A DNA stretch of 64,000 nucleotides from contig NC_081354.1 of the NCBI RefSeq assembly GCF_030684315.1, forward strand, positions 36,967,789 to 37,031,788, written 5' to 3'. This document shows, one piece after another, positions 4,793 through 57,900 of the stretch; the first letter of the stretch is position 1, and every line of letters begins with the position of its first letter. The notes under the pieces were generated by a model. That model saw only the letters and a program-made list of their open reading frames with translations. It was not told the origin of the DNA and made no database searches. Source of the stretch: Stegostoma tigrinum. Taxonomy: Eukaryota. Position numbers and translations under genes: made by a program.

Positions 4793-5515
4793 AGATAATA
4801 AAATGTGAGGCTGGATGAACACAGCAGGCCAAGCAGCATCTCAGGAGCACAAAAGCTGACGTTTCGGGCCTAGACCCTTCATCAGAGATGGGGATGGGGA
4901 GAGGGAACTGGAATAAATAGGGAGAGAGGGGGAGGCGGACCGAAGATGGAGAGTAAAGAAGATAGGTGGAGAGAGTGTAGGTGGGGAGGTAGGGAGGGGA
5001 TAGGTCAGTCCAGGGAAGACGGACAGGTCAAGGAGGTGGGATGAGGTTAGTAGGTAGCTGGGGGTGCGGCTTGGGGTGGGAGGAAGGGATGGGTGAGAGG
5101 AAGAACCGGTTAGGGAGGCAGAGACAGGTTGGACTGGTTTTGGGATGCAGTGGGTGGAGGGGAAGAGCTGGGCTGGTTGTGTGGTGCAGTGGGGGAAGGG
5201 GACGAACTGGGCTGGTTTAGGGATGCAGTAGGGGAAGGGGAGATTTTGAAACTGGTGAAGTCCACATTGATACCATATGGCTGCAGGGTTCCCAGGCGGA
5301 ATATGAGTTGCTGTTTCTGCAACCTTCGGGTGGCATCATTGTGGCAGTGCAGGAGGCCCATGATGGACATGTCATCTAGAGAATGGGAGGGGGAGTGGAA
5401 ATGGTTTGCGACTGGGAGGTGCAGTTGTTTGTTGCGAACTGAGCGGAGGTGTTCTGCAAAGCTTTCCCCAAGCCTCCTCTTGGTTTCCCCAATGTAGAGG
5501 AAGCCGCACCGGGTA
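4793..5515 (-). mobile_element. Penelope-like element (Neptune-type) 3' part: GIY-YIG endonuclease + pLTR with hammerhead-like motif
   Basis: RCGFLYIGETKRRLGESFAEHLRSV...ANHF...QQLIFRLGTLQPYGINVDF. CTGATGA...GAAACGTC at 4885-4858. Confidence 0.92.
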
Positions 5516-5939
5516 GAAGTTCGTTTCACACATAAACCATACTCTGTGTAAAAAAAAGTTGCCCCCCCAAATGCTTTTTAAATCTTTCTCCGCTCACCTT
5601 AAAAATATGCCCCCAGTCTTGAACTCACCCACCCCAGAGAAAAGACACCTGTCATTCACCTTATCTATACCCTCATGATTTTAAAACCTCTATGAGGTCA
5701 CCCCTTAATCTCCTACACTCCAGTGGAAAAAGTCCCAGCCTATCCAGCCTCTCCTTATAATTCATATCTTGCATTCCCAGCAACATCATAATAAATCTTT
5801 TCTGAACCCTCTCCAGCTTGATAATAACCTTCCTATAACAGAGCGACCAGAACTGCACACTATACTGCAGAAGATGATTCACCAACACCCCATGCAACCT
5901 CAGCATGACTTCCCAACTCTTATACGCAAAGGTTTGAAC

Positions 5940-6200
5940 AAAGGGACCCAGGTTCGATTCCAGCTTCGGGTGACTGTTTGTGTGGCGTTTGCACATTCTC
6001 CCCGTGTCGGCGTAGGTTTCCTCGGTGCTCCGGTTTCCTTCCGCCGTCCAGAGATGTGCAGGTTTTGTGGATTGGCCATTCTAAATTGCCCGTAGTATTC
6101 AGGGAGGTGTTGATTAGATGGTTTGTAGGGGAATGGGCCTGGGTGGGATGCTGTGAGGTTTGGTGTGGACTTATTGGGCTGAAGGGCCTCTTCTATGAAA
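5940..6200 (+). mobile_element. HE1-type tRNA-derived SINE (5'-truncated)
   Basis: B-box ggttcgattcc, V-domain tgtgtggcgtttgcacattctccccgtgt...ggtgctccggtttcct. Confidence 0.85.
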
Positions 6201-6329
6201 AAAAATTCTATGAAGGCGAGCATGCTATATGCCTTTTTAACCACCCTATTTACATGTAATGTAAACTTCAAAGAACCATGTACCTGAATCCCTAGGTCTC
6301 TTTGTTCTACAGTGCTTTGTATTTTCCTC

Positions 6330-6780
6330 TAACACCTGCAGGAAGACCTCATCAACATTCACTTTTGGGCAGTGATATTCATGTCACCCAGGTGCCAGGC
6401 AGTGACCATCTTTGACAAGAGAGAATCTAAACATCTTTCTTTGACTTCCTTTGGTGTTACCATTACTCAGTCCCAAAACATCACCAATTCTGAGCTTACT
6501 GTCAAGTAAATTCTCACCTGGGCCAGCTATGCCAATACTTGGTGAATCTGGCAATCCTGCAGACAGTATCTCTCTTGCTGGTTTCCCAAAGCCTGTTTTG
6601 TCCACTTTCAATAATGTACCTATCAGGAGTGTGCTGAAATTCTCTCCACTTGCCAGGATGGATGTGACTCAAACAACACTCAAGAAATTTGCAACGTCTG
6701 ACGCATTGCTGAATGCTTCAATTGTAACTAATCCATCACTAATACACTGCGACAAAAATGTGTACTATCTATCACCGGAA
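6330..6780 (+). mobile_element. 3' RT fragment of the LINE family seen at 60085-63240
   Basis: gccaggcagtgaccatc...agagaatctaaacatc...ggtgttaccattact matches 62530-62610. Confidence 0.65.
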
Positions 6781-24095: not shown

Positions 24096-24240
24096 GGTTT
24101 TATATATTTAACTGTTGTAGCATGCTTTTGTAGAAAGCAGTATATAGTGCTAACATTTTCACATTATCTCAATTTCTTTTGTTTCTGTGAAACAAACCAT
24201 GATATGTTTATACAAGTGATACATGATACAGAAAGCAGTG

Positions 24241-24246
24241 TTTATT
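24241..24246 (-). terminator. Polyadenylation signal AATAAA of JCHAIN
   Basis: AATAAA on the minus strand about 125 nt after the stop codon, in non-repetitive sequence. Confidence 0.7.
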
Positions 24247-24370
24247 ATGAAACCAGAGTTCAAACTGTTATTTTCTATTTCATGAAGGCAGAATGCCAGT
24301 ATGGCTAAATAACAAAGGTAGAGAGCCATAAAGAAACAGGAGTAGTTATTTATAAAATCTTTAGAACATT

Positions 24371-24599
24371 TTATGGAGCATCCGAAAAAGAATTTGGATC
24401 TGCTGTTGTTTCAATAGGTATCTCTGTAGGTTTTTGAGCCAAGGGTTCCACTTGGTGCTTGGAGTATTTAGCAGCTCCTAAGTAGCGTTGATAATCTCTG
24501 CATGATTGGTCATCATGACCATAGCATTCATCAGCGGGTGGAGGTTTGGGCTTGCACTGAGGTTCTTGTGGAGATTCTGGTCGACCACAATTCTTGCAG
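24371..24599 (-). CDS. JCHAIN: JCHAIN coding exon 4 (CKNCGRP...DECYGHDDQSC...SDAP*)
   Basis: Acceptor tcttctcatag with phase-2 entry. CKNC and CYGHDDQSC match human CKKC and CYTYDRNKC. Stop TAA at 24373-24371. Confidence 0.95.
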
Positions 24600-30500: not shown

Positions 30501-33500
30501 CCTAACCCAGAATACAGACCACTTATCCCTGATGTCTCAAACAATGAATTTCCTGCTTCTGTTCTGCTTTCCTTTTAATAATGCACACTGTCACTGTCTG
30601 AGCTGCAAGTGTGAAATTCTGATGAAATGCCTTCATCATCATTTTCTTCTTGCTCTTTGTCCAATTCTGCCTTGGTCACATTTTCAGAGTACCAGAAAGA
30701 AGAAAAACAGAAGAATGAAGCCATAGACATAGTAGGAACGCTGGAGAATCTAAGATAACAAGGTTGTAGAGCTGGATGAAAACAGCAGGCCAAGCAGGAA
30801 AGCTGACGTTTTGGGTCTAGACCCTTCTTTAGAAGAGGGTGTAGAACCGAAACATTAGCTTTCCTGCTCCTCTAGTGCTGCTTGGCCTGCTGTTTTCATC
30901 CAGCTGTACACCTTGTTATCTCAGAATGAAGTCATTTAGATTAGATTTTTTTTTAGATTAGATTCCGTACAGTGTGGAAACAGGCCCTTTGACCCAACAA
31001 GTCCACAACGCCCCTTGAAGCATCCCACCCAGACCCATCCCCCTATAACCCACACACCACTGAACACTATGGGCAATGGCCAATCCACCTAACCTGCACA
31101 TCTTTGGACTGTGGGAGGAAACCGGAGCACCCAGAGGAAACCCACGTAGACACGGGGAGAATGTGCAAACTCCACACAGACAGTCACCCGAGGCAGGAAT
31201 TGAACCCGGGTCCCTGGTGCTGTGAGGCTGCAGTGCTAACCACTGAGCCACCATGCCGCCCCATGGTGTGCTATAAAGTAGGACTTACATGCTTTCACTA
31301 TCTGGTAGGTTGTAAGACAGAAAAATTGTAGGTTGAGGGGTTAGTGACAAGTATCAGGTGAGGAAACTTTCATCTTCAGTGGCTTCAACTCATCCTCTAA
31401 CCATGGCCTCAGCAATGAAGCAGTCAGCTATCAACTCCATGGGAATTAAGACTTGCAGATTTCCATGCTCCTATCCATTAAGCTCCTGGTACTTTCAGTT
31501 TTTTGCCACCTTGTCCTGCTAGAGAGAGGAAGAGCATTGGTGAGTGTGGTGCAATTTATTTGGTTGATGTGGTTGTCATGGTTGAACATTTGGCAGCTTG
31601 TGCAAGTTGTGAGATGTATACCTGAGGCTTGCTGCAGTGCTATATGAATGAGGGGGTGGTAGAGCAAATGACTGTCTGGAGTGAGTCCTCAGTTACAAAG
31701 GCTGTTAGTAGGTTAGTGCTGGTGGTGTGATATATCGAACAATATCTGAGGAAGTGGTGCAGTTGACAGGGTAAGTCATTAAATTGCATTCTTTGACCTT
31801 GATCTCTTGGGTGAGATCATTGAACCTTTTGTGGTATTGCACCCACGTCCCTGATGTGACTGCTGGCATCAATCCATGTCTATCTGTTCCCACTTCATTC
31901 TGAGCATGTGTCTGGAGGGCATTCTTTGGTTACAGGACATCTTTCTTCTTACTCGCCAAATCCACCAAGGTCTAAAGCGTTGTTTTGAAGCGAACTTGGA
32001 TCCCACAACTCTCCCACATTGTGTCCATTCTTCAATGATTTTCAGATCAGAGACACTTCCTGCTTGACTGACAGGACCTGCTTCAGCCATCATGCACTTT
32101 TCCTTTGAAAGGCTCATTTGGCTTTAGGAATTGCAGGCTAGCTTTAAGTACTGCAGTTTAGCTTTAAGTACTGTAGGCTAGCTTTAAGCAGTGCAGGCTA
32201 ACTTCTTGTGTCAGCTTCTTGTGATATTTCCCTTTTTAATGCATCCAATCAATCAACAACATGATGAGCTGGCATAATAATAATGAAACTATTGAGTTGG
32301 ACAGGCAGTGCAATGTTGGTATGCTACGTTGCAATTGACAGGTATTGGTTCTTCATGCATCCTGATTCCCCCTGTGGTTTATGGTTGCTCCAGTTTTTAG
32401 TATCCCTAATGTACTACACCACCTATAATTGGTGTAGTTTTAGTTACTTACGGAACAACTTTGAGAAGCTGAGAAATTCACGATACCATTATACAGTTCA
32501 GGCAGTCTATATTCAATCAATACCTCTGTGGACACTCTCATGAATATGTTAAATCCCACTTTCTTCACTGAGAATTCTTTCTGAAATTGCAGTGTCTGGC
32601 TTCTGGCTTTCCTGGGTTCTCAGGTGTCTTTCCTTCTCATTTTCTCTAACCCTTAGGTTTTTCAGGCTTTTAAAACTGAATTTCCTCTGAAATTCTTGCA
32701 CTTGGTAAAATAGCTGAAAAAGTACCAATTTCTGCAGGTGAACAGAGTTTCTGCCACACTGCAGCTAAGTTGTTTCAGTGGCTTTAGAGGAAGAACAAGT
32801 TTGAGGAGAATTCTGACATTTTTGTCAGTGATTACTTCTTCATTCTTCAGCTCCATTTCTACTATTTTCAATATTGTCAGCTTAGCCCTCCATAAAACCA
32901 ACTGCCGAAGCTAGTAAATCAATGGCCAAATGGTTTGTGGTTTATGAATCTATCACACATATGTCAGTTCTTTCGAAGTGTTCTCAAATTTCTTCCTGTG
33001 GCTCAGTACTTTTTTCCATAACTTGGAAAGTTAAGCTTCTGCAAGGAGACATCCAGTGTTTTATTTTGATCTTGTGGAATCTGATTCCAGTGCCTTTGCA
33101 GATAGCGTTGTTCATATCTCAAGATCTTTGTGGAAAGAAATTTCTTCCAATTCTAGTTCTTTTGCAAATGGTTATCAATCTGTGATATTTGGCTGTACTC
33201 TCCAAATGAGGCAGATTCTCTTTACTGGTTCTGTCAAAAAAAACCTTCTCATTTTGTTTGCATTTCATCTCCCCCTAACCTTCCACTATAAAAAAAATCC
33301 TTTAGAGCCACCATACAGTTATTTCTGATTGGTCTGGTCCATTTGAAACTGGTAAAATTACTCATTATGAGTGTTAGTGGATTTTGTACACAAAGTGCAT
33401 AACATGCAGCAAAGTCTGAATTGTAACAATGGCCCCAAATCCGTACAGTTGCACATTACAAAAGTCACAAAAAAAAGCAATCATACAAATCTGAAATCTT

Positions 33501-36500
33501 GTAGACAAACTTGGTCCGAATGGGGGAGGTTGGATCTGAAATGTTCTCTCTGCTTCTCAAAGGAACTCTGAAATGAAAGAACAATTAACAGTAACTGAAG
33601 ATTACCAGAAACTTTCAATATATACTCCAAGAACATTTAATGTGTGAACTTTTTTATTTGCTGTTGAGATTTCATTCTGGCATTTACTAAAATCAATCAT
33701 TTAACATTTGATACAATGTAACTGAACAGGAAAATGCTAAACTGAGAGGGGGATGGATACTTAATAATATGAAAGGACAATTAAAATTACATTACATTTA
33801 AGTAATTTCACATTTCTCAATGAGGCAATGTGTGTAGTATAACTCAAACTGAACAGAAGTCAGTTTGGGCTTTTTCTTTCTGGCAGAAACTAAGAAGGTA
33901 GTTTCGAACCAACTGAATGACACATCATGCAATTGAGAGAGAGATAATGGGAACTGCAGAGGCTGAAGAATCCAAGATAACAAAGTGTGAAGCTGGATGA
34001 ACACAGCAGGCCAAGCAGCATCTCAGGAGCTCAAAAGCTGACGTTTCGGGCCTAGACCCTTCATCTGATGAAGGGTCTAGGCCCGAAACGTCAGCTTTTG
34101 TGCTCCTGAGATGCTGCTTGGCCTGCTGTGTACATCCAGCTTCACACTTTATCATCATGCAATTGAAACTGATTGTGTAATTCTATGACTCAAAACAAAC
34201 ATTATAATATTAAAAAAAATGAATATACTTTGTATAATGTATTGAGGGAAAGAACTCTGAGATATCATGGGATGGATCAAACTGATGATGATGAATTGCC
34301 ATCAACTGCTATCAGCAGGTTTTAGATGGTCTGGTACTTCATATAGTCACAGCATCTTCAATGCGGTGGTCATATAGCACCATGGTCATATAGGACAGCC
34401 ATTAAACCAGTAAAGGCAACTGCGCACCTGCTTTCTTTATATAAAAAATTGAATCCTTACAGTGTGGAAATAGTCCTTTAAGTCCATCAAGTCCATGCTA
34501 ACCCTCTGAAGAGCATCTCACCAAAACCCAGCCCCCTACCCTATCCCCAATTTTTACCTATCTAGCCTGTGTACTGATGACAATTTATATTCACCAATCC
34601 ACCCAAGCCTGGAAATCTTTGGACTGTGGGAGGAATCTGGAGCAAACCCACATAGAAACAGGGAGAACATGTAAACTCCACACAGATAGTCCCCTGAGGG
34701 TGGCATCAAACCCAGGTCCCTGGTGCTTTGAGGCAGTAGTGCTGCCCACTGAACAATCGGCCACTCTGTCCCCCAGTTCCTCCAACCGGAACTTTTTAAT
34801 CAGGTAGTAAGATTGCCCAAGATTTTTAATTTTATTTTTGTGTGAATAAAAGTAGAAATATAGAAGTAAATTTGACAGATTTTGTTTTGACCTGCGGCCT
34901 CATTGTGCACATGGAATTTTTATGTAGAACAGGGAAGTGGGATCATTTGTGTCCAATTTCCTATGTTTCTTACAAGAGAAGTGTGCTTTTCCTGGCATCC
35001 AATCTGACTGATGAATATTATCTACAATAAGTTTCTGGTAGTATGCTTTTCATTTATTTGACTGTATGGTGAATATAATCAGAAGTCAACAGTAACACTT
35101 ACATAATTTTTATATCTCTCGCCAGTTGTTCCACTTTTTCACCATTAGGCAGTTCAGTGACAATCATCTTAGATGACACCTCCAAAAGCTTACATCTTGA
35201 TGAAACTAAAAGGTGCCTTTCAGATTTAGCTGTAATGACAGAGATGGTTACAACTCTCTAAATCTGAAGTACTATCATTAAAAATGAGGAACTAGTGTTT
35301 CCTGTATTAGCAGCCCAGATGGAAGTTCTGTCAGATATTAATTGCCAAATATTGCAACTATTAATTTGTGAAAATAAGTTAGCTCTGGTTAGCAAATGTA
35401 CATCACAAAGCTCTTGTTAACCAAGTGAATCATGAAGGAATATAGCTATTTAATAGCTGCTGGACTGTGGATAACATCGTCAGGGTACCAACAAAAAGGT
35501 TTGAGAGGAAAAACAGCTGACCAGTATTCCACAAATATCACCAACCCCACCCCCACCCCAGGTTGATCAGCATCTGTTAATAGGGAATTTGCTTTCGCAG
35601 ACATTGATGCGATTCCAGAATTACCTAACATTATTATCATATAACAGGAAGAAAAACATACAAGCCAAATGATATTAAAATTATAAGCTTGTAAATAACT
35701 GATTTATCATTAAACTATTGTACTTTTTAAACCTATTAAATTATTGTAACAGAGAAAACTGCAGTGTTGATAAGATGGAGGTTGAAACCTTTAGAACCTG
35801 GGAAGAAATGAAATACTGGGTCCTCCATTAGCAACAGCATAATGAAAGAATACAATGTAAATTCACTAGGATGTTGTTTGATTTAAGAAATACAAATTGC
35901 GTAAAAGAAACATTGTGATTTAGCCACCTCAATCTAATGTGGATGACATTGCTGTTGCCCTCTTTGAACTCATAAGCTTTGTCCACTCATCAATGTACCC
36001 TTCTAACTTCCTATTGCCACCTATGTAACATGAGTGTCTAACTTTCTGTAAATGTTTTTAAACTTCTTATTTCTCCATCTAAGTCACTTCTTTATTTGGT
36101 ATGAATAATTTGTTGGTTTCAGGGAAAGCCCCAGGTGAGATCCCTGGGCCACACCATTTGTTACATCCTTGCCACTTAGACAATATTTCTTTTATCACTA
36201 CTCACTGTGAAAACAAGTACTAATCTATGCTATATTTTATTTCAGTACTAAGAATGTGCAATTTTTCTCATAATTTCTTCCAGCTAGACTAATCAAATGT
36301 TTTCTGGAAATTTATGTGAACAATCTCCATGGGTATTATTCCAGACAGCATGCAGGCTAGCAATGTTCTCAAACAAAAATCAACTCCATTAGTTAGATAT
36401 ACCATGGAATTTATTGCTGGCCCCAAGTGGCAGATCCGGTTGTGAGGTTATTTAATCAGGCAGGAGGGTGGCAAATGGAGATAGTGTCACCCTACCACTT

Positions 36501-39500: not shown

Positions 39501-40851
39501 AGGTGACCTGCCGGGTCTAGGCCCGAAACGTCAGCTTTTGTGCTCCTGGGATGCTGCTTGGCCTGCTGTGTTCATCCAGCCTCACATTTTATTATCTTGG
39601 AATCTCCAGCATCTGCAGTTCCCATTATCTCAGCAAATGTATTGACTTGTTAATATCCTGATGGAGACATTAGATGCATGTTGAACAATTAAATATTCTT
39701 ATATGAGCTGATTTGTCCAAAAAAAATGAACCTAGCAGAGCTAGGTCACTTCTTCTCAAATGAAATAGAAAGTTAGAGAGTATGTGATCTACTAAGCATT
39801 AGCTCAGAAAGATCCTGACTAATGAAGTATGCAAATTAATAAATAAGGTTACTAGTTTGTTCAATTTGTTGATGAAAGCAGAATCCTCACATTGTAGTAA
39901 TTAATGTCAGAAACTCGTGTTAGGAGACATTCAGCAGAGGCTAAGTACTAACCCAAAAGAAAGAGAAAATCATGGAAAAAACTGTATGAGCTAAGGACTA
40001 TCTCTATTGTAACCCTTGTGAGCTTTAATATAACATACACAGAAATATGTGAAATCATTTCAGAGCATGCTTTTTGGTGTGACCTACAATGTTGTATGAG
40101 TACTACTGTCATTTTCTTTAGAACTCAAATGTTGAACCAAAGTGTTCTGCACTTGTCAATGCTCACAACAGGAAAAAAAACATTCTTATGGATTTATTCA
40201 AAGATGAGCTGGGACGTTTTCCCAGTGAAAAGATTAACATTTGCCCCTTAACCAACATCTTTGAAATAGCTCAGTTTTTCAAAAGAATGATCTCTACTGA
40301 AGCGATTATATTCTTTTCTATTTTGAAATGCGCAGTAATCTATAGTCACATTAGTTTATGCTTAGTCTTCAGTTGTGTTGCGATGAAAAACTAAATTACT
40401 TTAACAACAGGACTGACAGATACATTTAAAATGCATGTTCAGACATGGTGGAAAGAACTATCGGATAAATTAACAATCTTTGCATGATGTTGCCTGTGTC
40501 AAAATTATGTATAAAGAGACCATTTTAGTTTTGTTTTCAAGAAGAAGCTTACATAACATGATACACAACATCAGTGTTCATAAATAGTCATTCAAAATTC
40601 AACTTATACTGATTATATTGATGAGCTTTGACAAACTCTCATACAAGTATCCTCACAACCCAAGTCCAAAGATGCTGTGTCTAATTATCATAGAGAAGGC
40701 TGTCTCCCTGATTCTGTGGGCTAACAAAGCAGGAAGTATTTGCTCATCATAATGCCATAATTATAATGATAGTTAAAACCTTACCTGCTGAAAGAGCTGT
40801 GTAAAATAGAACTGCTGCAAGTACTCCCAACATATCTTTACTCTTCATCAT
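24371..40851 (-). CDS. JCHAIN: Immunoglobulin J chain gene, 4 coding exons: join(complement 40851-40785, 35229-35103, 33567-33487, 24599-24371), 504 nt, 167 aa
   Basis: Manual splicing gives an open frame with GT-AG introns in phases 1, 2, 2. It contains the J-chain hallmark I-V-P-L-x-x-R-E-N-I-S-D-P-T-S-P-x-R-T-x-F-V-Y (N-glycan site NIS), followed by CxxC and CY-x6-C, and has an N-terminal signal peptide. Confidence 0.97.
24735..26750 (+). mobile_element. Degenerate CR1 LINE ORF2 (JCHAIN intron 3)
   Basis: PLFKKTGRQNVGNYTPV...GKSCLINLLEFF; IAKFAYDAKVGG...LQMDVERLGEWAK. Confidence 0.88.
26750..27525 (-). mobile_element. L2 LINE fragment
   Basis: gtggtcaactttgtcaaagctgctgagaag (antisense LSAAFDKVDH); antisense GVAQRSILGPVLF. 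Confidence 0.7.
27525..28700 (-). mobile_element. CR1 LINE RT + 3' end
   Basis: GLGYEERLTTLCLYLIEF; antisense gtggagttccgcagtgg (SGVPQ) and tttccagaaggcctttgacaaggtg. Confidence 0.85.
29799..29961. mobile_element. Fold-back Penelope pLTR insertion, 16-bp TSD ctggtttatgagaata
   Basis: TSD at 29783-29798 and 29962-29977; inverted arms. Confidence 0.88.
30725..30922. mobile_element. Fold-back Penelope pLTR insertion, TSD agaatgaag(c/t)cat
   Basis: TSD at 30712-30724 and 30923-30935; arms meet at about 30830. Confidence 0.85.
30940..31262 (-). mobile_element. HE1 SINE, full length
   Basis: Antisense ggggcggcatggtggctcagtggttagcactgcagcctcacagcaccagggacccgggttcaattcc..., with A/B boxes and a (tctaa)n tail. 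Confidence 0.93.
31700..32200 (-). mobile_element. Degenerate Myb/SANT-like (trihelix) ORF, probable PIF/Harbinger transposon remnant
   Basis: Frameshifted SKFAS...LRMKWEQI...GTWVQYHKRFNDL, resembling the PRFS..W..I..RT..QC.KRFNDL pattern of Harbinger DNA-binding proteins. Adjacent 20-bp tandem repeat at 32131-32200. Confidence 0.6.
32560..33250 (-). mobile_element. Possible highly decayed Ty3/Gypsy gag remnant
   Basis: Scattered frameshifted motifs (KLTILKIVEM, QCGR..H, KCKN) in the order of a fish Gypsy gag and zinc knuckle. Many stops. Confidence 0.3.
33487..33567 (-). CDS. JCHAIN: JCHAIN coding exon 3 (VPLRSRENISDPTSPIRTKFVYKISDF)
   Basis: 81 nt, acceptor ttctttcatttcag, donor gtatga, phases 2 to 2. 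Very close to human VPLNNRENISDPTSPLRTRFVYHLSDL. Confidence 0.98.
33937..34152. mobile_element. Fold-back Penelope pLTR insertion, 14-bp TSD catcatgcaattga (JCHAIN intron 2)
   Basis: Palindrome centred at 34066. TSD at 33923-33936 and 34153-34166. Intact CTGATGA...GAAACGTC at 34065-34092. Confidence 0.93.
34455..34775 (-). mobile_element. HE1 SINE (diverged)
   Basis: tttggactgtgggaggaatctggagca...aaactccacacagatagt. Confidence 0.85.
35103..35229 (-). CDS. JCHAIN: JCHAIN coding exon 2 (AKSERHLLVSSRCKLLEVSSKMIVTELPNGEKVEQLARDIKII)
   Basis: 127 nt, acceptor ctctgtcattacag, donor gtaagt, phases 1 to 2. Aligns to human ERIVLVDNKCKCARITSRII...VERNIRII. Confidence 0.93.
36563..36885 (+). mobile_element. 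HE1 SINE, full length
   Basis: ggggcagcacagtggctcagtggctagcactgctgcctca...ctgggttcgattt...ctgtgtggagtttgtacattctcccc. Confidence 0.92.
38480..39160 (-). mobile_element. CR1 3' fragment
   Basis: VRTHLDHNLLFGS...ILALEAIQQ. Confidence 0.7.
39513..39630 (+). mobile_element. Penelope pLTR 3' fragment (single arm)
   Basis: gggtctaggcccgaaacgtcagcttttgtgctcc...gcatctgcagttcccattatc. Confidence 0.85.
40785..40851 (-). CDS. JCHAIN: JCHAIN coding exon 1 (signal peptide MMKSKDMLGVLAAVLFYTALSA + 1 nt)
   Basis: ATG at 40851, plus a second in-frame ATG at 40848 with better -3 context. Hydrophobic leader with GVLA as in the mammalian J-chain leader. Phase-1 donor G|GTAAGG at 40784-40779. Confidence 0.92.
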
Positions 40852-47110: not shown

Positions 47111-47129
47111 ATACTGCCTAGGTGCTCAA

Positions 47130-50050
47130 ACATAGAAACACAGAAGATAGGAGCAGGAGGAGGTCACTTGGCCCTTCAAGTCTGCTCTGCCATTCTTCAC
47201 GATCATGGTTGATTGTCCAACTCAGTAGCCTAATCATGCTTTCTCTCCATATCCTTCGATCCCATTTTCCCCCAAGTGTTATATCTAGTTGCTTCTTGAA
47301 TACATTCAATGTTTGGCCATCAACTACTTTCTGTGGTAATGAATTCCACAGGCACACCACTCTCTGGGTGAAGAAATGTCTCCTCATCTCCGTCCTAAAT
47401 CGTCTACCCTGAATTCTTATACTGTGACACCTGGTTCTGGATACCATTGGGAACATCTTCCCTGCATCTGCACTGTCCAGTCTAGTTAGAATTTTATAAG
47501 TCTCTATGAGAACACCCTCTCATTTGTCTGAGCTCCAGCAAAGACAATCCCAACCTAGTCAATCTCTCCTCAAACATCTGACCTGCCATCCCCGGAATCA
47601 GCCTAGTAAGCCTTTGCTGCACTCCGTTGAGAGCAAGAGCATCCTTCCTCAGAAAAGAAGTCCAAAATTGCACACAGTATTCCAGGTGTGGTCTCACCAA
47701 GGCCCTTTAAAAATACAACAACACATTCCTGCTTCTGTACTCAAAACCTCTCGCAGGGAAGGCCATTTGCCTTCTTTATCACCTGCTGTACCTGCATGCT
47801 TACCTTCAGTGACTGGTGCACAAGGATGCCTAGGTCCCGCTGCACACTCCCCTCTCACAAGTCATAGCCATTCAGTTGGTAATCTATCTCCTTGTTTTTG
47901 CTTCCAAAGTGAATAACCTCCCATTTATCCAAATTATATGACATCTGCCATTGATTTGCCCACTTGCCCAACCTGTCGCGTTCATGCTGAATGATCTCTG
48001 CATCCTCATCACAGTTCACCCTCCCACCCTACTTGGTATCATTTGCAAACTTGGAGATGTTACATTTTGTTCCCTCATCCAAATCATTAATATATACTGT
48101 GAATAGCTAGGGTGCCAGTGTCGATCCTTGTGGCACCCCACTAGTCACTGCCTGTCAATTTGTAAAGGACCCGTTAATTCCTACTCTGCCAACCAGTTTC
48201 CTATCCATCTTAATACACTTTCCCCATTCCATGCGCTTTAATCTTTCACATTAATCTCTTATGTGGGACTTTGTCAAACACTTTCTGAAAGTCTAAATAC
48301 ACTACATCAACCATTTCTCCCTTGTCAACTCAACTAGTTATATCTTCATAGAATTCCAACAGATTTGTCAAGCATGATTTCCCCTTCGTAAATCCATGCT
48401 GACTCTATCTGATCCTGCCACTGCTTTCTAAATGTTCTGCTGTAAAATCCTTGACAATGGATTTGAGAATTATCCCCCCAACTGATATTGGACTCATTGG
48501 TCTATAACTCTCTGTTTTCTCTCTACCTCCCTCTTTCACTATTGGAGTGACATTAACCATCCTCCAACCTGCAGGGACTGTTGCAGAGTCTATAGAATCA
48601 TGGAAGATAACCATCAATGTATCCACTTTGGCCATTACCATTTCCTAATTTGGTAATGACAGAAGAAAAGTACTCATTTAGTACCTCTGCCATACCCTTT
48701 GCTTAGTGAGCAGCTTACCCTGCTTATTCCTTATGGGCCCACTCTAACCTTCACTGGTCTTTTACTATTAATATGTTTGAAGAGCATTTTATTGTTTGTT
48801 TTATTTAGCCTGCCATCCTTTCCTTATTCCTGCCTTAACTTCTCTGCTGCATAGAATTATAGGATCCCTACAGTGCAGAAAGAGGCCATTCAGCCCACAG
48901 ATTCTGCACTAAATCTCTGAAGACCATCCCACCCGGTCTATTTTTCCCGGTCTACCCTAGGGTAATTGAAAGCACCAACTATCACAGTCCTACTGACCTG
49001 CAGCTTTCTAAAATCTGCCTACAAATGCTCTCTTCTGCTTCCTCCCCAGGATTTGGAAGTTTATAATAAACACCTGACAAGGTCACTGCTCCCTTCCTGT
49101 TTCTCACCTCCAGCCATATAGATTTCAATTCAGGAACTGTATCTCGTTCAAGGGTAACGATGCTATCTTTATCCAAACTGCTACAGCTCCTCCCCTTTTA
49201 CCCTCACTCTTTCTACTACAAACTGTATAACCCAGGTTGTTTAGCATCCAATCCTGTTCTGGCTTGAGCCACATTTCTGTCGATGCTACAATGTCATGTA
49301 TCTCTGCAGCAATTTCTGCTTCCAGATCCCCAGTTCTTTTCATTATACTCTATACATTTACCTTAAATTTATCCCTATACTTTTCTCTTTATTGCACATT
49401 GTAAGGTGATCATTTCTTTGTGCACTATCAACACTTAAACTTTTCATTCCTTGACTTTCCCTGTTTATCATCTTCTCTCTTTGGTACTTCTGAAACCAGG
49501 CCCATTAGTCAACACACAACCCCTACCTCTCTCAATCAATAGATTAGTTCTATTTCTGCTCATATAAAGCTGTTTCTCTGGCCAGCTTCCTCTTTTCCCA
49601 AAGTAAGCCCAATGCCCCAAAATCCAAACCTTTCCCTTCTATATCATTCTCCAAGCCACACATTCAATTCCCTGATCTACATTTGCTTATGTGGTGAAGC
49701 ATGTGGCCTAGGTAGTATTTCTGAGATTGTTACCCTGGTGGTCCTGCATTTTAACCTACTCCCAAGCTCCTGAAAATGATCCAACAAGTCCTCCAAGCTG
49801 TCCCTCACAGTATTATTTCCTACATGAACCACAAGCACTGGCTGTTCACCCTCCATTTCTAGAAGTTTATCCAGTTGTTCCATTATGTCCTCAACCCTTG
49901 CAGTAGAGAGGCAAAACCATATGGGACTTACAATCGCGGCTGCAAACCAGCCTGTCTGTCCCTCGAATTATTGAGTCACCTGCAATTACTACCTTATCTA
50001 CCTTATTTGCCGCCAGCCTCTTTCTTTTCCCAGAGCAGCCTCAGGCATTA
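47130..50050 (-). mobile_element. CR1 LINE with ORF1 SGNH esterase, APE and RT (internally deleted)
   Basis: GEQPVLVVHVGNN...FQELGSRLKCRTTRVTISEILPRP (esterase); HDIVASTEMWLK, SIWLEVRNRKGAVTLSGVYYKLP (APE); VRPHLEYCVQFW. Confidence 0.9.
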
Positions 50051-50475: not shown

Positions 50476-50797
50476 TGGTTTGACTTGTCAAACTATTGGG
50501 AACAGATGTGCAAGACTGAGACAGTTGGGTTTGCCAAATTCAATCCATCCATGCAATCATCTCACTATTAAGGTATTTCTTGTGTGCACACCTTACAAGG
50601 TCTTTCACACGCATTTCCTTTCTCCCCCGAGATATACTCCTTTAGCATTTACCCACTCACCAAAGAATATTGTGGATATGACGAAACATGATGAGGGAAC
50701 GCCATGTGACATCTTGGAGTATGCAAAATGTTTTGGTAAAGAACTCCTGAGCTCAGCATTGAAGTACTGTGACTAACAGGAGATATTGCAACACACT

Positions 50798-51470
50798 GAT
50801 AATGGGAACTGCAGATGCTGGAGAATCCAAGATAACAAAGTGTGGAGCTGGATGAACACAGCCGGCCAAGCAGCATCTCGGGAGGACAAAAGCTGACGTT
50901 TCAGGCCTAGACCCTTCATCAGAGAGGGGGATGGGAAGAGGGTTCTGGAATAAATAGGGAGAGAGGGGGAGGAGGACCGAAGATGGAGAGAAAACAAGAT
51001 AGGTAGAGAAGAGAGTATAGGTGAGGAGGTAGGGAGGGGATAGGTTAGTCCAGGGAAGATGGACAGGTCAAGGAGGCGGGATGAGGTGGTAGGTAGGAAA
51101 TGGAGGTGCGGCTTGAAGCGGGAGGAAGGGATGGGTGAGAGGAAGAACAGGTTAGGGACGCAGAGACAGGCTGGGCTGGTTTTGGAATGCAGTGGGGGGA
51201 GGGGAAGAACTGGGCTGGTTTTGGGGTGCAGTGGGGGAAGGGGAGATTTTGAAGCTTGTGAAGTCCACATTGATACCATTGGGCTGCAGGGTTCCCAAGC
51301 AGAATATGAGTTGCTGTTCCTGCAACCTTCGGGTGGCATCATTGTGGCACTGCAGGAGGCCCATGATGGGCATGTCGTCTGAGGAATGGGAGGGGGAGTT
51401 GAAATGGTTAGCTTTTGTGCTCCTGAGATGCTGTTTGGCCTGCTGTGTTCATCCAGCTCCACACTTTGTT
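50798..51470 (-). mobile_element. 5'-truncated Penelope element with inverted terminal pLTR piece, 15-bp TSD atattgcaacacact
   Basis: EQQLIFCLGTLQPNGINVDF. TSD at 50783-50797 and 51471-51485. Confidence 0.93.
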
Positions 51471-52885
51471 ATATTGCAACACACTATTGACGTTGCTGCT
51501 TCATGTGAAACCTGAAACCTAACAGAGGAGGGATCACTAACCAAATTGTCAGTGGCTGCACATTCTCTGGACTGGCAAGTCAAAGGACTGAGAAACTAGC
51601 ATTGGCTTTGCTATCAAGTTAAAACTACAAAAAATTGGGGTATTCCTCTACTTCTATGAACAAGTATGCAACAACAGTTAGTGAAAATGTTCCAACACAA
51701 ACTAGAACTAGCGTTATCAAATACCAACTCTATGAAGACCTGGACAGAGCTATCGCAACTACTTCTTGGAGGACAAACACTTGTGACGGGACACTCTAAT
51801 GCTGACACTCAGGCCTGGGACCGTGCTCTGGGATATCAAGGTGTGGGGAAGTGCAATAAATGTAATGCTTGTCCTCAGTTTTTGCACCCGCTGGAATAAT
51901 GTCAATCGCAAACACAGTTTTCAAACTGAAAGCAAAGTATAAAAATATTTCAATGCTCCCAAGGTCTAAGCAGAGACATTAAATTGGTTTCATTTTTACC
52001 CAGCAGAGCATGTAAATGATGTTATGATCATCATCATTAGGAAAAGAGTGCAGGGCTCTGCAAGCCACACATGATCCCTATGGATCTCTACTCCACAATG
52101 AACATTTACTATTGCACTAAAATGAAGAACAGTGAGCTCTTAATCCTGAAAATTTAAATGTGCAGAAACTGGTATCTACACAGTGCTGGGATTGATTCAG
52201 GTTCGGACATAAGGGACTGCTGGGGCGGAAGAAAGCCCAAGTATTGATGTTGAAGTGGCATAGTCAGCTGTCTGGATCCACAATGCCGGAAGCTGGTAAT
52301 GAAGTCCTGAGAGCACAGAATATAAATGACTGAGATTTGTTTGATAAAAATGAGTTTGAATTAAAGAACCGCTACAGGAAAAGAATGAGCATGGCTGGGA
52401 GCAGAGATGCTGCTCAGAAATCACTCCCTAGAGAGCAAAAGGAATCTGCAACAGAAGCTGCACATGAAACAAGACACATGTAGGCCAAGGGAGACAGGCA
52501 GCTGTGCTGATCATCACAACCTACTCATAAGGCACTGCAGACTGTCTCTCTCTCTCTCTCTTCTTTTTTCCCTCTCTCTCTCTTGCAGTGGCTCACCTGT
52601 TCACAACATGGGAATTATGGGAATGTATTGGACAGGGCAGTTACCAAAGAGCACTGGGCTGAGTAGTTCAGGGTCAGACGTGCCTAACTGCCCATCCACC
52701 ATAAATAAGAATGCTATATAAGTTTCTGGTACAAATCCAAATGTCAAAATCTGGACAGCGAGTTCTGTTACTGAGCTTGATGAAAGCATCATATACCAAT
52801 CCTCAAGAAAAGTTCTGTATATCAATGGGACCCCAGTACTAATGAACAAATTTTAGCCAAATAATGTACAATAATGTACAATATA

Positions 52886-53235
52886 AGGGCAACCTCATGG
52901 CTCAGTGGTTAGCATTGCTGCCTCATAACAACAGGTTCAATTCCACCTTGAATGACTGTCTGTGTGGAGTTTGCATATTTTCACTGTGTTTGCATGGGTT
53001 TCGTCTGGGTGCTCTGTTTTCCTCCCACAGTCCAAAGATATACAGAGTAGGCAGATTGACCAAGCTAAATTGCCCTTTCACATCTAGGGATGTGCAGGTT
53101 AGATGGATTAGCCATGGTAAATGTGGGGTTACAAGGATAGGTTTGAGGGGCTGGGTCTGAGTGGGGTGCTCTTCAGAGGGTTGATGCAGGGCTCAATGGG
53201 TCAGTGGCCTCTTTCCGCACTGCAGGAATTCTATG
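52886..53235 (+). mobile_element. HE1 SINE
   Basis: tggctcagtggttagcattgctgcctca...ggttcaattcc...ctgtgtggagtttgc. Confidence 0.9.
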
Positions 53236-53716
53236 AAATTTGGAAAAATCCATGGAAACCATGAAAGGCAAGGAAACACAAAAGTTCTTTAGCAGACTTT
53301 TGAGAAGAAAGGACTCGGGAGCCAGTTACAGGCATAGGTAACAATCATAAACTGACATAAAAGGGGAAATGGCTTAGAAGCGGTTCTCATACATCAGCAT
53401 TAAGTTGCAATCCAGTGAGTACAGCTCCCTGATCAGTTGGATTTCATACACTTGGGCAATTGGAGGCTTTGGATTAAATGAGAAATCGTCTTATAGAGAT
53501 CACGGGGGCATAAAACGGAGATCCAGGAATTCTAGACAGTCTAAGCTCATGGCAAGCAAGACCAGAGCTCTACACAGGAATAAGCTATCAGCACCACCTG
53601 CTTTCCCCGTGACTACACTTCCACATGATGGCACTGAAACAGGTAGATACAGATGAGAAATAGGAGGTGACTGAGATTAAATACTTGGAAAACATCACAG
53701 GAGCAGGAAAAGAAGT

Positions 53717-54811
53717 GGAATAACAAAGTGTGGAGCTGGATGAACACAGCAGGCCAAGCAGCATCTTAGGAGCACAAAAGCTGATATTTCGGGCCTAGAC
53801 CCTTCATCAGAAAAGAGGGAGGGGAAGAAGGTTCTGAAATCAATAGGGAGGCGGGGTGCGTATCGAAGATGGATTGAGGAGAAGATAGGTGGAGAGGAGA
53901 CAGACAAGTTAAAGAGGCAGGGATGGAGCCAGTAGAGGTGAGTGTAGGTGGGGAGGTAGGGAGGGGATAGGTCAGTCCGGGGAGGATGGAGAGGTCAAGG
54001 GGGTGGGACGAGGTTAAAAGGTAGGAAATGGAGGTGCGGCTTGAGGTGGGAGGAGGGATAGGTGAGAGGAAGAACAGGTTAGTGAGCCGGGGTTGAGCTG
54101 GGCTGGTTTTGGGACGCAGTAAGGTGAGGGGAGATTTTGAAGCTTGTGAAATCCACATTGATACTGTTGGGCTGCAGGGCTCCCAAGCGGAATATGAGTT
54201 GCTGTTCCTGCAACCTTCGGGTGACATCATTGTGACATTGCAGGAGGCCCAGAACAGACATGTCATCTAAGGATTGGGAGGGGAAGTTGAAATGGTTTGT
54301 GACTGGGAGGTGCAGTTGTTTATTGTGAACCGAGCGTAGGTGTTCTGCAAAGCGGTCCCCAAGCCTCCGCTTGGTTTCCCCAATGTAGAGGAGGCCACAA
54401 CGGGTGCAGCAGATGCAGTATACCACATTGGCAGATGTGCAGGTGAGCATCTGCTTGATGTCGAAAGTCTACTTGGGGCCTGGGTTTGGCGTGAGGGATG
54501 AGGTATGGGGGCAGGTGTAGTACTTCCTGTGGTTCCGGGGAAAGTGCCGGGTGTGGTGGGATTGGAGGGGAGTGTGGAGTAGACAAGGGAGTCACGGAGA
54601 AAGTGGTCCCTCCAGAAGGCAAAAAAGGGTGGGGATGGAAAATTGTCTTTGGTGGTGAGGTCCGATTGTAGATGGTGGAAGTGTCAGTGGATGATGCATT
54701 GGATCCAGAGGTTAGTGGGGTGTCATGTAAGGACGAGGGGGATTCTCTTTTGACGGTTATTGCAGGGATGGGGTGTGAGGGATGAATTTTAGGAAATATG
54801 GGAAACACGGT
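53717..54811 (-). mobile_element. Penelope-like element, GIY-YIG region + pLTR
   Basis: TCTSANVVYCICCTRCGLLYIGETKRRLGDRFAEHLRSV...EQQLIFRLGALQPNSINVDF (ORF 54079..54450). Confidence 0.94.
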
Positions 54812-54844
54812 TTGGACTGGAATACCTTGCTGGTGGTTGCCCTG

Positions 54845-55370
54845 GTTGCCCTGTTACAGGAAGGGTATTATTAAACTGGAGAGGGTTCAGAATAGATTTA
54901 CCATGATGTTACCAGGAATGCCAGGAGGACTTGAGATATAAGAATAGACTGAAAAGACTGGGACAGTTTTCACTGGAGCAGAGCAGGTTGAAGAGTGACC
55001 TTATTGATGTTTATAAAATAATAAGCGGCATGGGTAAGGTGAATAACAAGGGTTCTTGCTTGGTAGGAGAATTCAAAATTAAGGGGCATATTTTTAAGAT
55101 GAAAGGAGAATGATTTAAAAAGAACTTGAGGGGCAACCTTTTAACACAGAGAGTGGCTCATGTGTGGAATGAACTGTCAAAGGAAGTGGTGGATGCGGAT
55201 ACAGTTACAACATTTGAAAGACATTTGTGTATTTTAAAGAATAGGAAAAGTTTGCAGGGATATGGGCCGAGTGCACGCAGGTGGGACTAGTTTAGTTTGG
55301 GAGCATGGTCAGCGTGGACTGGTTGGATCAAAGGGTCTGTTTCTATGCTATTTGATTCTATGACTCAAAC
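54845..55370 (+). mobile_element. HER1/CR1 3' end
   Basis: RLKRLGQFSLEQSRLKSDLIDVYKII. Confidence 0.85.
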
Positions 55371-55589
55371 TCTCTATGGGACATCTTTCCTAATTTTGGC
55401 ACGGGTTTCCTTCCCTGTTATTAGTGATGTTGACAGGGCTGAGACTGCTGTTACATTTTCTGGTACCCATATCAGTGCCACATGGACTGCCCAGGTTCAT
55501 TCTTTTCACTGGGCTTTCTACTGTTTTAATGCAACTGAGTGGCTTGCTAGGGCTATTTCACGGGGAAAATAAGACACAGCCACATATTT

Positions 55590-57900
55590 GAGATAGAAAC
55601 AACTGCAGATTCTGGAGTCAGAGATAATTCAAAGTGGAGTTGGAAGAACACAGCAGGCCAGGCAGCATCAGAAGAGCAGGAAAGTTGACATTTCGGGTCA
55701 GGACACTTCTTCAGAAATGGGGACGGGGAAGGGAGCTCAGAAATAAATAGAGAGGAGGGGTGGGGCTGGTGAAGGTAGGTGGGATGGTGATAAGTGAGTG
55801 CAGGTGATGATTGGTGGGGATTGGTCAGTGAGTTGGGAGGAGCAGGTAGGTGGGAGAGACAATGGGCAGGTTGTGTCAGGTCAAGGAGGTAAAGATGAGA
55901 GGGAGGATTGGTCATGGAATGAGGTCAGGGGTGGGGAGATTTTGAAACTGGTAAAATCCACATTTTAAGCCATAGGCTCTCGTGGCGGAATATGAGGTGC
56001 TGCTCCTCCTGATTGCGAATGGCATCTCTGTGACATTGGAGGAGGCCCAGGATGGATATGTCACCCAGGGAGTGGGGTGGGGAGTAAAAATGGTTGACGA
56101 CTGGAAGGTGTTGTTTGTCACAAACAGAACACAGATGCTCTGCAAAATGGTTTCTGAGCTTCTGCTTGGTCTTACTGATGTAGACGAGGCCACATCAGGA
56201 GCAGCGGATGCAGTAGACTGTTCAAGCTCCTCGTGGAAGCATGATGCAGTGGTGATACAGTTGTCAATGTAGTGGAGGAAGAGGTGGAGGATAGTGCCAA
56301 TGAAGCAGCTGAAGAAGGACTGTTCAACGTATCCTACAAAGACGCATAGCTTGAGCCATGCAGATGTCCATGGCCACCCCCTTAGTCTGTAGGAGGTGGG
56401 AGGAATTAAAGGGGAAGTTTTTAAATGTAAGGATGAGTTGGGTTAAGCAGATGAGGGTGTTTGTGGAGGGAGACTTTGTTGGGCCTGTGGGAGAGGAAGA
56501 AGCAGAAGTCTTTTAGGCCATCCCGGTAGGGGATACAAGTGTACAGGGAAAGTGTGCTCCCATAAGGAGCTTGCACAGTTTATTAACTTTACTAACACCT
56601 TTCACCTCAACCTTAAGTTAACCTGGAACATCTCCGATACCTCCCTCTCCTTCCTGGGCCTCGCTGCCTCCATCTTTGGTGACCATCTCAAAACCAACAT
56701 CTTTTCCAAGCCCATCAGTTCCCACAGCTACCTAGACTACACCTCCTCTCACCCACCTTCCTGCAATAGCCCCCACTCCCAATTCCTCTGCCTCCACCGC
56801 ATTTGCTCCCAAGATGGGACTTTCCACCTCTGCACATCCCAAATGTCCTCCTATTTCAAGGACTGCAACTTCTTCCCTCTGGTGATCAAAAATGCCCTCA
56901 ACCGCATCTCTTGCAATTCCCACACATTTGCCCTCACATCCCCTCACCCCAACAAAAATAAAACAGAACGCCCCTTGTCCTCACATATCACCCCACCAAA
57001 CTCTGCATCCAACGTATCATTCTCAGTCACTTCTGCCACCTACACTCCAACGCCAGAATCAAAGCGATATTTGCTTCTCCACCCCTTTCTACCTTTCATA
57101 GGGAGCGCTATCTCCGTGACTCCCTCATCCGCTCCATACTCCCCACTAACCCCGCTACCCCCGGCACCTTTCCGTGTAATCATAGGAAGTGCTACACCTG
57201 CCCCTACACTGCCTCCTTCACATCTCTCCTCACCTCCATCCAAGGCACCAAACACACCTTCCACATTAGGCAGGGTTTATTACCTGCGTATCCAACAACT
57301 TGACCTACTGCATCTGCTGCTTCCAACATGGCCTCCTCTACATTAGTGAAACCCAGCGGAAGCTGAAAAACTGCTTTGTAGAACATCTCACTCTGTTTGT
57401 GACAAATGACAACGTCTTCTGATTACCAACCATTTTAAGCCCCCCTCCTACTCCATGGGATGACATGCCCATCCTGGGCCTTCTCCAGTGTCACAATGAT
57501 GCCACCTGCAAACTGGAGGAGCAGCACCTCATATTCCGCCCTGAGAGTCTACAGCCCGATGGCCTATCTATGGATTTTACCAGTTTCAAAATCTCCCTAC
57601 CCTCAGCCTCATCCTATGTCCAGCCCTCCCTCTTAGCCCTGCCTCATTGACTTATCTGTCTTGTCTTCCACCTATCTGCTGCTCCCAACTCACTGGCTAA
57701 TCCCCACACTCCCTATCTGCACTCACCTATCACCATCCCACCTACCTTCCTCAGCTCCACCCCTCCTCTCTCTATTTATTTCTGAGCTCCCTTCCCCCTC
57801 CCCATTTCTGAAGAAGGGTCCCAACCCAAAATGTCAACTTTCCTGCTCCTCTGATGCTGCCTGGCCTGTTGTGTTCTTCCAGCTCCACACTGTGTTATCA
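55590..57900. mobile_element. Penelope-like element with inverted halves (minus 55590-56550, plus 56550-57900): RT thumb, GIY-YIG, pLTRs
   Basis: FINFTNTFHLNLKLTW...KPISSHSYLDYTSSHP...SQFLCLHRICS; EEQHLIFRPESLQPDGLSMDF. pLTRs at both ends in opposite orientation. Confidence 0.9.

Follow-up and report, generated by a model that had tools for sequence, protein, structure and literature searches.

Can a cysteine that has lost its usual partner take over as a link between the J chain and IgM? The question is raised by a J-chain gene of Stegostoma tigrinum lying within the window (the whole stretch of 64,000 nucleotides analysed here), whose product retains a C-terminal cysteine equivalent to mammalian C108 but has neither C133, with which C108 pairs in mammals, nor C14, one of the two cysteines that bond the mammalian chain to immunoglobulin tailpieces. 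The chain is a real, conserved and lineage-specific variant of a known protein, and we consider below how its six cysteines may be wired.

The JCHAIN gene of the window

The gene has four minus-strand exons, separated by three introns that are all bounded by GT..AG and have phases 1-2-2, and encodes a JCHAIN precursor of 167 amino acids. Its features are as follows.

40785..40851, minus strand: coding part of exon 1, 67 nt; hydrophobic leader, likely a signal peptide; phase-1 intron after it
35103..35229, minus strand: exon 2, 127 nt; C12 is TGT at 35192-35194, and C14 is changed to Leu, CTT at 35186-35188 (CKL versus CKC)
33487..33567, minus strand: exon 3, 81 nt; conserved J-chain core with N-glycosylation sequon; match to PF15097
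24371..24599, minus strand: coding part of exon 4 with stop codon, 229 nt; C68, C71, C91, C100 (24524-24526), C108 and the tail
24500..24502, minus strand: codon TGC of the unpaired C108 (precursor C125)
24437..24499, minus strand: precursor residues 126-146, remnant of eroded beta-hairpin 3 and start of the extension; C133 lost; 0/21 positions invariant in 11 galeomorph species
24374..24436, minus strand: precursor residues 147-167, Pro/Thr/Ser-rich extension with SDAP end; 10/21 positions invariant in 11 galeomorph species
24222..24370, minus strand: 3' UTR, with an AATAAA-type signal at 24246 and a poly(A) site near 24222

The translation matches the human J chain with an E value of 4.5e-21; exon 3 matches the Pfam profile PF15097 at 41.2 bits (cut-off 27) and aligns without gaps over 26/26 positions to human J residues 41-66, a conserved block with the N-glycosylation sequon. 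A predicted structure of the monomer, of mean pLDDT only 57.8, has J chains as its top 15 Foldseek hits (best E value 4.9e-4). The translation is identical to a database protein labelled Stegostoma tigrinum (P0014), and shares 155 of its 167 residues with the whale shark chain and 152 with that of the nurse shark (AAO14897.1, equal to P0015). Four coding exons with intron phases 1-2-2, as found here, are the JCHAIN structure given in PMC10801876, which also lists the same exon sizes in the carpet-shark jchain rows of its Dataset S1 and reports linkage of JCHAIN to CXCL clusters in sharks.

Among the best candidates scored, the genome yields one PF15097 match and one exon 4 match; the gene is single copy, and the presence of a second one was rejected on these grounds. 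Fifteen contigs of run X5 span the junction of exons 3 and 4, and a poly(A) tail is placed at 24222; splicing is deduced from the X5 contigs themselves, as no listed run is recorded as RNA, and the junction evidence concerns exons 3 and 4. No alternative letter is listed at the C108 codon across four runs, of which X1 is possibly the source of the assembly, in contigs that lose rare variants. Sequencing error, polymorphism and decay to a pseudogene were rejected as explanations of the cysteine pattern, since the gene is spliced and single copy, no C108 variant is listed, and the pattern is repeated in galeomorph relatives. Elsewhere in the window, the longest open frames outside JCHAIN (1-400, 4844-6330, 47121-49200 and 50776-57343) look, by eye, like degenerate retrotransposon fragments.

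Cysteines and tail across J chains

The precursor has cysteines at positions 35, 93, 96, 107, 117 and 125, equivalent to mammalian C12, C68, C71, C91, C100 and C108. Leu replaces C14 and no cysteine follows C108, such that both the mammalian CxC motif and the closed C108-C133 hairpin 3 are missing. The tail after C108 comprises 42 residues and is free of cysteine, compared with 28 residues in three tetrapods. The four-exon translation and its alignment are thus in agreement with the preliminary description as to the six cysteines, their mammalian equivalents, the retention of C108 with loss of C133, and the length of the tail against the mammalian 28. A different mapping is given in PMC3743840, in which Cys 3 and Cys 6 of the shark chain are missing and there is an extra Cys; we prefer the equivalences above because rays and squalomorph sharks bridge the alignment.

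The nurse shark chain (AAO14897.1) has the same six cysteines, spacing and 42-residue tail, with no cysteine difference from the window chain. Human and mouse J chains (6KXS, 6LX3, 6UE7, 7JG1) have the core sequence, fold, exon structure and six cysteines in common with it, whereas the window chain lacks C14 and C133, has a C71-C91 spacing of 11 rather than 20, and combines an eroded hairpin 3 with an extra C-terminal extension. The short hairpin 2 (24554-24589, minus strand) is a wider elasmobranch trait, the C71-C91 spacing being 11-12 in elasmobranchs, approximately 20 in tetrapods and 18 in the chimaera.

We retrieved 29 chondrichthyan J-chain sequences, 13 of them from 11 galeomorph species of three orders, a sample from which Heterodontiformes are absent. 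All 13 galeomorph sequences, including those of whale shark and nurse shark, read CKL, keep C108 and lack C133. All eight cysteines are kept in seven species (sevengill shark, sawfish, electric ray, two devil rays and two stingrays), and the sawshark chain has seven, without C68. Skates (seven sequences, four species) keep C14, but their chains end five residues after C100 and so have no C108; the chimaera keeps C14 and is missing C68, C108 and C133. C14 is present in 16/16 non-galeomorph chondrichthyan sequences and in 105/105 non-chondrichthyan cluster representatives (among the best 120 of 147 matches); in the latter set C68 is missing in three and C133 in three. C12 and C100 are invariant in 50/50 aligned J chains, including those of skates and chimaera without C108. 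A wide profile search gave 29 proteins, 24 of them new, and none of the 17 of these that were inspected resembled a further elasmobranch J chain.

Several side observations arise from this survey. Three non-chondrichthyan chains lack C133 (P0064, P0066, P0131), but their last exons seem to be partially or aberrantly modelled, and we did not treat them as natural cases of an orphan cysteine. C68 is missing in P0008 (Pristiophorus), P0029 (Callorhinchus) and P0053, P0067 and P0103 (Xenopus laevis, Anomaloglossus and tammar wallaby); these losses are apparently repeated and independent, each being a single database record except for the chimaera, which represents a 22-member cluster. The skate chains (P0013, P0023-P0028) have neither hairpin 3 nor extension, and the thorny skate has several copies.

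The eight-cysteine chains of Heptranchias (P0010), Pristis, Narcine, Mobula, Hypanus and Hemitrygon have the core, the short hairpin 2, C108 and the SDAP extension in common with the window chain; unlike it, they retain the CxC motif and a C108-C133 hairpin aligning to human hairpin 3. The global alignment misplaces C133 in eight elasmobranch sequences, and its position was taken from further alignments. For the sevengill shark, alignment to the human chain extends across hairpin 3 as far as C133, and the modelled structure places two strands between C108 and C133, a predicted beta-hairpin. Beyond C133 the eight-cysteine species and the sawshark have approximately 30 residues ending in SDAP (16 in the Narcine model, which lacks its end), and the chimaera chain also ends in SDAP. 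The comparison shows, as far as the sampled chains can represent it, an ancestral-type elasmobranch J chain in which all eight cysteines are present, C108 and C133 close a hairpin, and an extension ends in SDAP. In a core tree of 22 sequences, built with the C14 column and the tail excluded, the galeomorphs group with support of 0.905, and the losses of C14 and C133 therefore fall on one branch. The six-cysteine type is, on this tree, a derived state of one lineage, the galeomorphs among the species sampled.

The preliminary description had the tail replacing the mammalian one, and this part does not stand. Against a profile of the post-C108 region of seven rays and squalomorph sharks, residues 20-42 of the tail score 30.1 bits (the best of 500 shuffles reaching 5.0, with 455 reported), and the tails of white shark and basking shark match it from inside hairpin 3 onward. 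Because of these matches, the tail is best read as hairpin 3 without C133 and with a net loss of approximately nine residues relative to the ancestral-type elasmobranch hairpin, followed by an older extension common to rays and other sharks. The end of the tail does not correspond to the mammalian C133 segment carrying Phe for Cys, a proposal rejected because rays and squalomorphs have their C133 equivalent farther upstream, within an NPEC motif. A low-confidence helix is predicted at precursor residues 126-133; the monomer prediction has pLDDT below 50 for residues 121-167 and gives no distances, and is therefore uninformative on cysteine pairing. An alternative frame in the eroded hairpin (24455-24485, minus strand) reads LLN, to be compared with LLNPEC of the sevengill shark, and may hint at a compensated frameshift inside hairpin 3, although chance could account for it. 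The Pro/Thr/Ser-rich extension ending in SDAP (24374-24436) is conserved across chimaera, rays and sharks but has no counterpart in tetrapods; it may serve as an O-glycosylated stalk or a binding motif.

C108 itself could have proved polymorphic, or absent in close relatives, in which case its proposed role would have lapsed; it is present in 11/11 galeomorph species, with no variant listed in the four runs. Around it, one of the seven preceding and none of the 21 following positions are invariant in these species. An unchanged C108 has a probability of 0.02-0.09 if the mean local rate applies and of 0.15-0.29 if that rate is halved; its retention is moderate, not decisive, evidence of selection. 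The C100-C108 spacing is eight in 13/13 galeomorph sequences, with tails of 33-46 residues.

pIgR and earlier accounts of the shark chain

It had also been proposed that divergence of the tail agrees with an apparent absence of a true pIgR in cartilaginous fish. Because the C108-C133 hairpin persists in rays and in the sevengill shark, lack of pIgR cannot have removed the galeomorph C133, nor does it explain the six-cysteine type, which is the derived state of one lineage. The pIgR contact residues Arg105, Tyr134 and Asp136 are absent from the aligned window chain; none of the aligned elasmobranch sequences has Tyr134 or Asp136, which fits a general lack of pIgR binding in elasmobranchs.

The nurse shark is the reference for early antibody biology, and the unusual C-terminus of its J chain is cited to explain why shark IgM is not carried as it is in mammals. 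The chain was reportedly described by Hohman et al. in 2003, and its six-cysteine sequence has been public since that year. The alignment places this form of the C-terminus as derived and limited to galeomorphs, with rays and the sevengill shark carrying a mammal-like eight-cysteine chain. Reviews tie the poorly conserved C-terminus of shark J chains to missing mammalian-type transport (PMC4279169, PMC5192425). In PMC10801876 the elasmobranch C-terminus is called unique and its function polymerisation only, and Dataset S1 of that paper already notes CKL for five shark species. A literature search, which apart from the papers cited here covered listed records, found no publication on the coupled galeomorph loss or on C108 as an anchor, either of which may be treated in Hohman 2003 or in Castro & Flajnik 2014.

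Possible wirings of the six-cysteine J chain

The mammalian complexes provide the geometry. In human sIgA, as described in 10.1101/2020.02.11.943233, the Cys471 bonded by C14 is that of Fc2B and the one bonded by C68 is that of Fc1A; the C108-C133 hairpin packs on Fc1A, the other monomer than C14's, and Tyr472 of Fc2B, adjacent to the Cys that C14 bonds, is enclosed together with J Arg105. In 10.1101/2020.09.10.291138, Y576 of Fc2 in human sIgM is sandwiched against J R106, in that paper's numbering, and PMC7707832 has C14 and C68 bonding tailpieces of different monomers in a mouse structure. Arg105, which touches the C14-side tailpiece end, is three residues before C108, and C108 should for this reason lie at the C14 end of the core, as judged from the described contacts. 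Among the mouse J mutants of PMC11729874, C15S is more impaired than C69S, and some covalent, secreted pentamer remains with either and even with the C15-69S double mutant; C13-15S is poorly inserted, one CxC cysteine sufficing for incorporation; deletion of hairpin 3 leaves assembly mostly intact; and the authors suggest that other J residues are able to reach C575.

We tentatively propose, at somewhat short of an even chance, that C108 of the galeomorph J chain forms a second disulfide to the IgM tailpiece in place of C14. By analogy with the mammalian structures, C12-C100 and C71-C91 would be paired, C68 would be bonded to a tailpiece from one flanking monomer, and hairpin 3 would have its base at the end of the J core where C12, C14 and C100 lie. 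Loss of C133 and of the rigid hairpin would free the 101-108 loop and could bring the penultimate Cys of the second flanking tailpiece within range of C108; none of the six J cysteines, and neither free tailpiece thiol, would then be left unpaired. Such a substitution is plausible because the C14-bonded tailpiece ends against Arg105, close to C108, and the contacts of Arg105 and R106 with Tyr in sIgA and sIgM and the stronger effect of C15S count in its favor, as do the invariance of C108 amid eroding positions, its fixed distance from C100, and Ser at the C414 position of IgM described below. The only C14 loss seen among the 105 non-chondrichthyan and 16 other chondrichthyan sequences and the galeomorphs is in the lineage with the orphan C108, and in the four skate species and the chimaera, which kept C14 but lost hairpin 3, C108 is gone too. 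Against this, the coupled loss of C14 and C133 is a single event, since it maps to one branch and is not a repeated co-variation, and therefore has no statistical weight by itself; mammalian hairpin 3 packs on the other monomer; and the Arg105-Tyr contact is made by long side chains, neither of which is kept in Stegostoma (Asp in the J chain, Gln at the tailpiece end).

Compensation for C14 is not required in any case, because mouse C15S and C15-69S still give secreted pentamers, and it is conceivable, if somewhat doubtful, that C68 alone bonds IgM while the other side is held by non-covalent beta-sheet packing, with C108 free, capped by a small thiol, or otherwise used (ER thiol retention, a J-J dimer or a further partner). 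One-anchor chains without a spare cysteine exist in five lineages (Xenopus laevis, Anomaloglossus, tammar wallaby, Pristiophorus and Callorhinchus), one event cannot demonstrate compensation, and slow drift at half the local rate could have kept C108 with the chance given above. The window chain is nevertheless the opposite of these five, which lost C68, kept C14 and have no orphan cysteine; in 5/5 natural cases the lost anchor is C68 and never C14. The invariance of C108 within an otherwise eroding region also counts against this reading, and an exposed odd cysteine in a secreted protein is usually selected against. Somewhat less likely again, yet a close rival to anchoring by C108, is a shifted arrangement in which C12, two residues from the lost C14, anchors the immunoglobulin together with C68, and a C100-C108 bond closes a seven-residue loop, again with six cysteines paired. 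Such a wiring accounts for the joint loss of C14 and C133 as well as anchoring by C108 does, and is consistent with the mouse CxC mutants and with the fixed C100-C108 spacing of galeomorphs; that spacing of eight is ancestral, though, and not diagnostic, and the invariance of C12 and C100 even in chains without C108 is as expected of a core structural pair. A C68-C108 bond, leaving the J chain without a covalent link to IgM, would likewise pair all six cysteines, and mammalian hairpin 3 and C68 both face Fc1A, but the described connectivity should place C68 and the hairpin 3 base at opposite ends of the core, and the nurse shark J chain is reported as associated with multimeric IgM. It is also said to be released from multimeric IgM by reduction. 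We regard a C68-C108 bond as very improbable.

On balance we think it probable, though not strongly so, that in galeomorphs one of the two covalent anchors of the IgM pentamer passed from C14 to C108 (or else to C12, C100 then bonding C108), rewiring a disulfide network 450 million years old, that pIgR arose later than the full eight-cysteine J chain with its hairpin 3, and that the nurse shark form, long read as primitive, is derived. If C108 is the relocated anchor, the lineage provides a natural experiment on how the J chain locks five IgM units, with galeomorph and ray chains as a ready comparison; if not, it presents a lineage-specific erosion of a known protein.

The partner side was inspected in the best-scoring part of a larger family of IgM loci in the Stegostoma genome. 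The penultimate tailpiece Cys is kept in seven of the nine IgM-like tails seen, the other two reading through, and Ser occupies the position of human C414 in 8/8 Cmu3-like exons (L021, L022, L024-L029); inter-monomer links would therefore rest on the tailpiece Cys. These tailpieces end in Cys-Gln or Cys-Leu, as against Cys-Tyr. The two tails that read through (L029 and L030) may belong to pseudogenes. A second heavy-chain type, likely IgW or IgNAR (L013:1435-1857, plus strand), has a secretory tail with a penultimate Cys, and is a possible further partner of the J chain.
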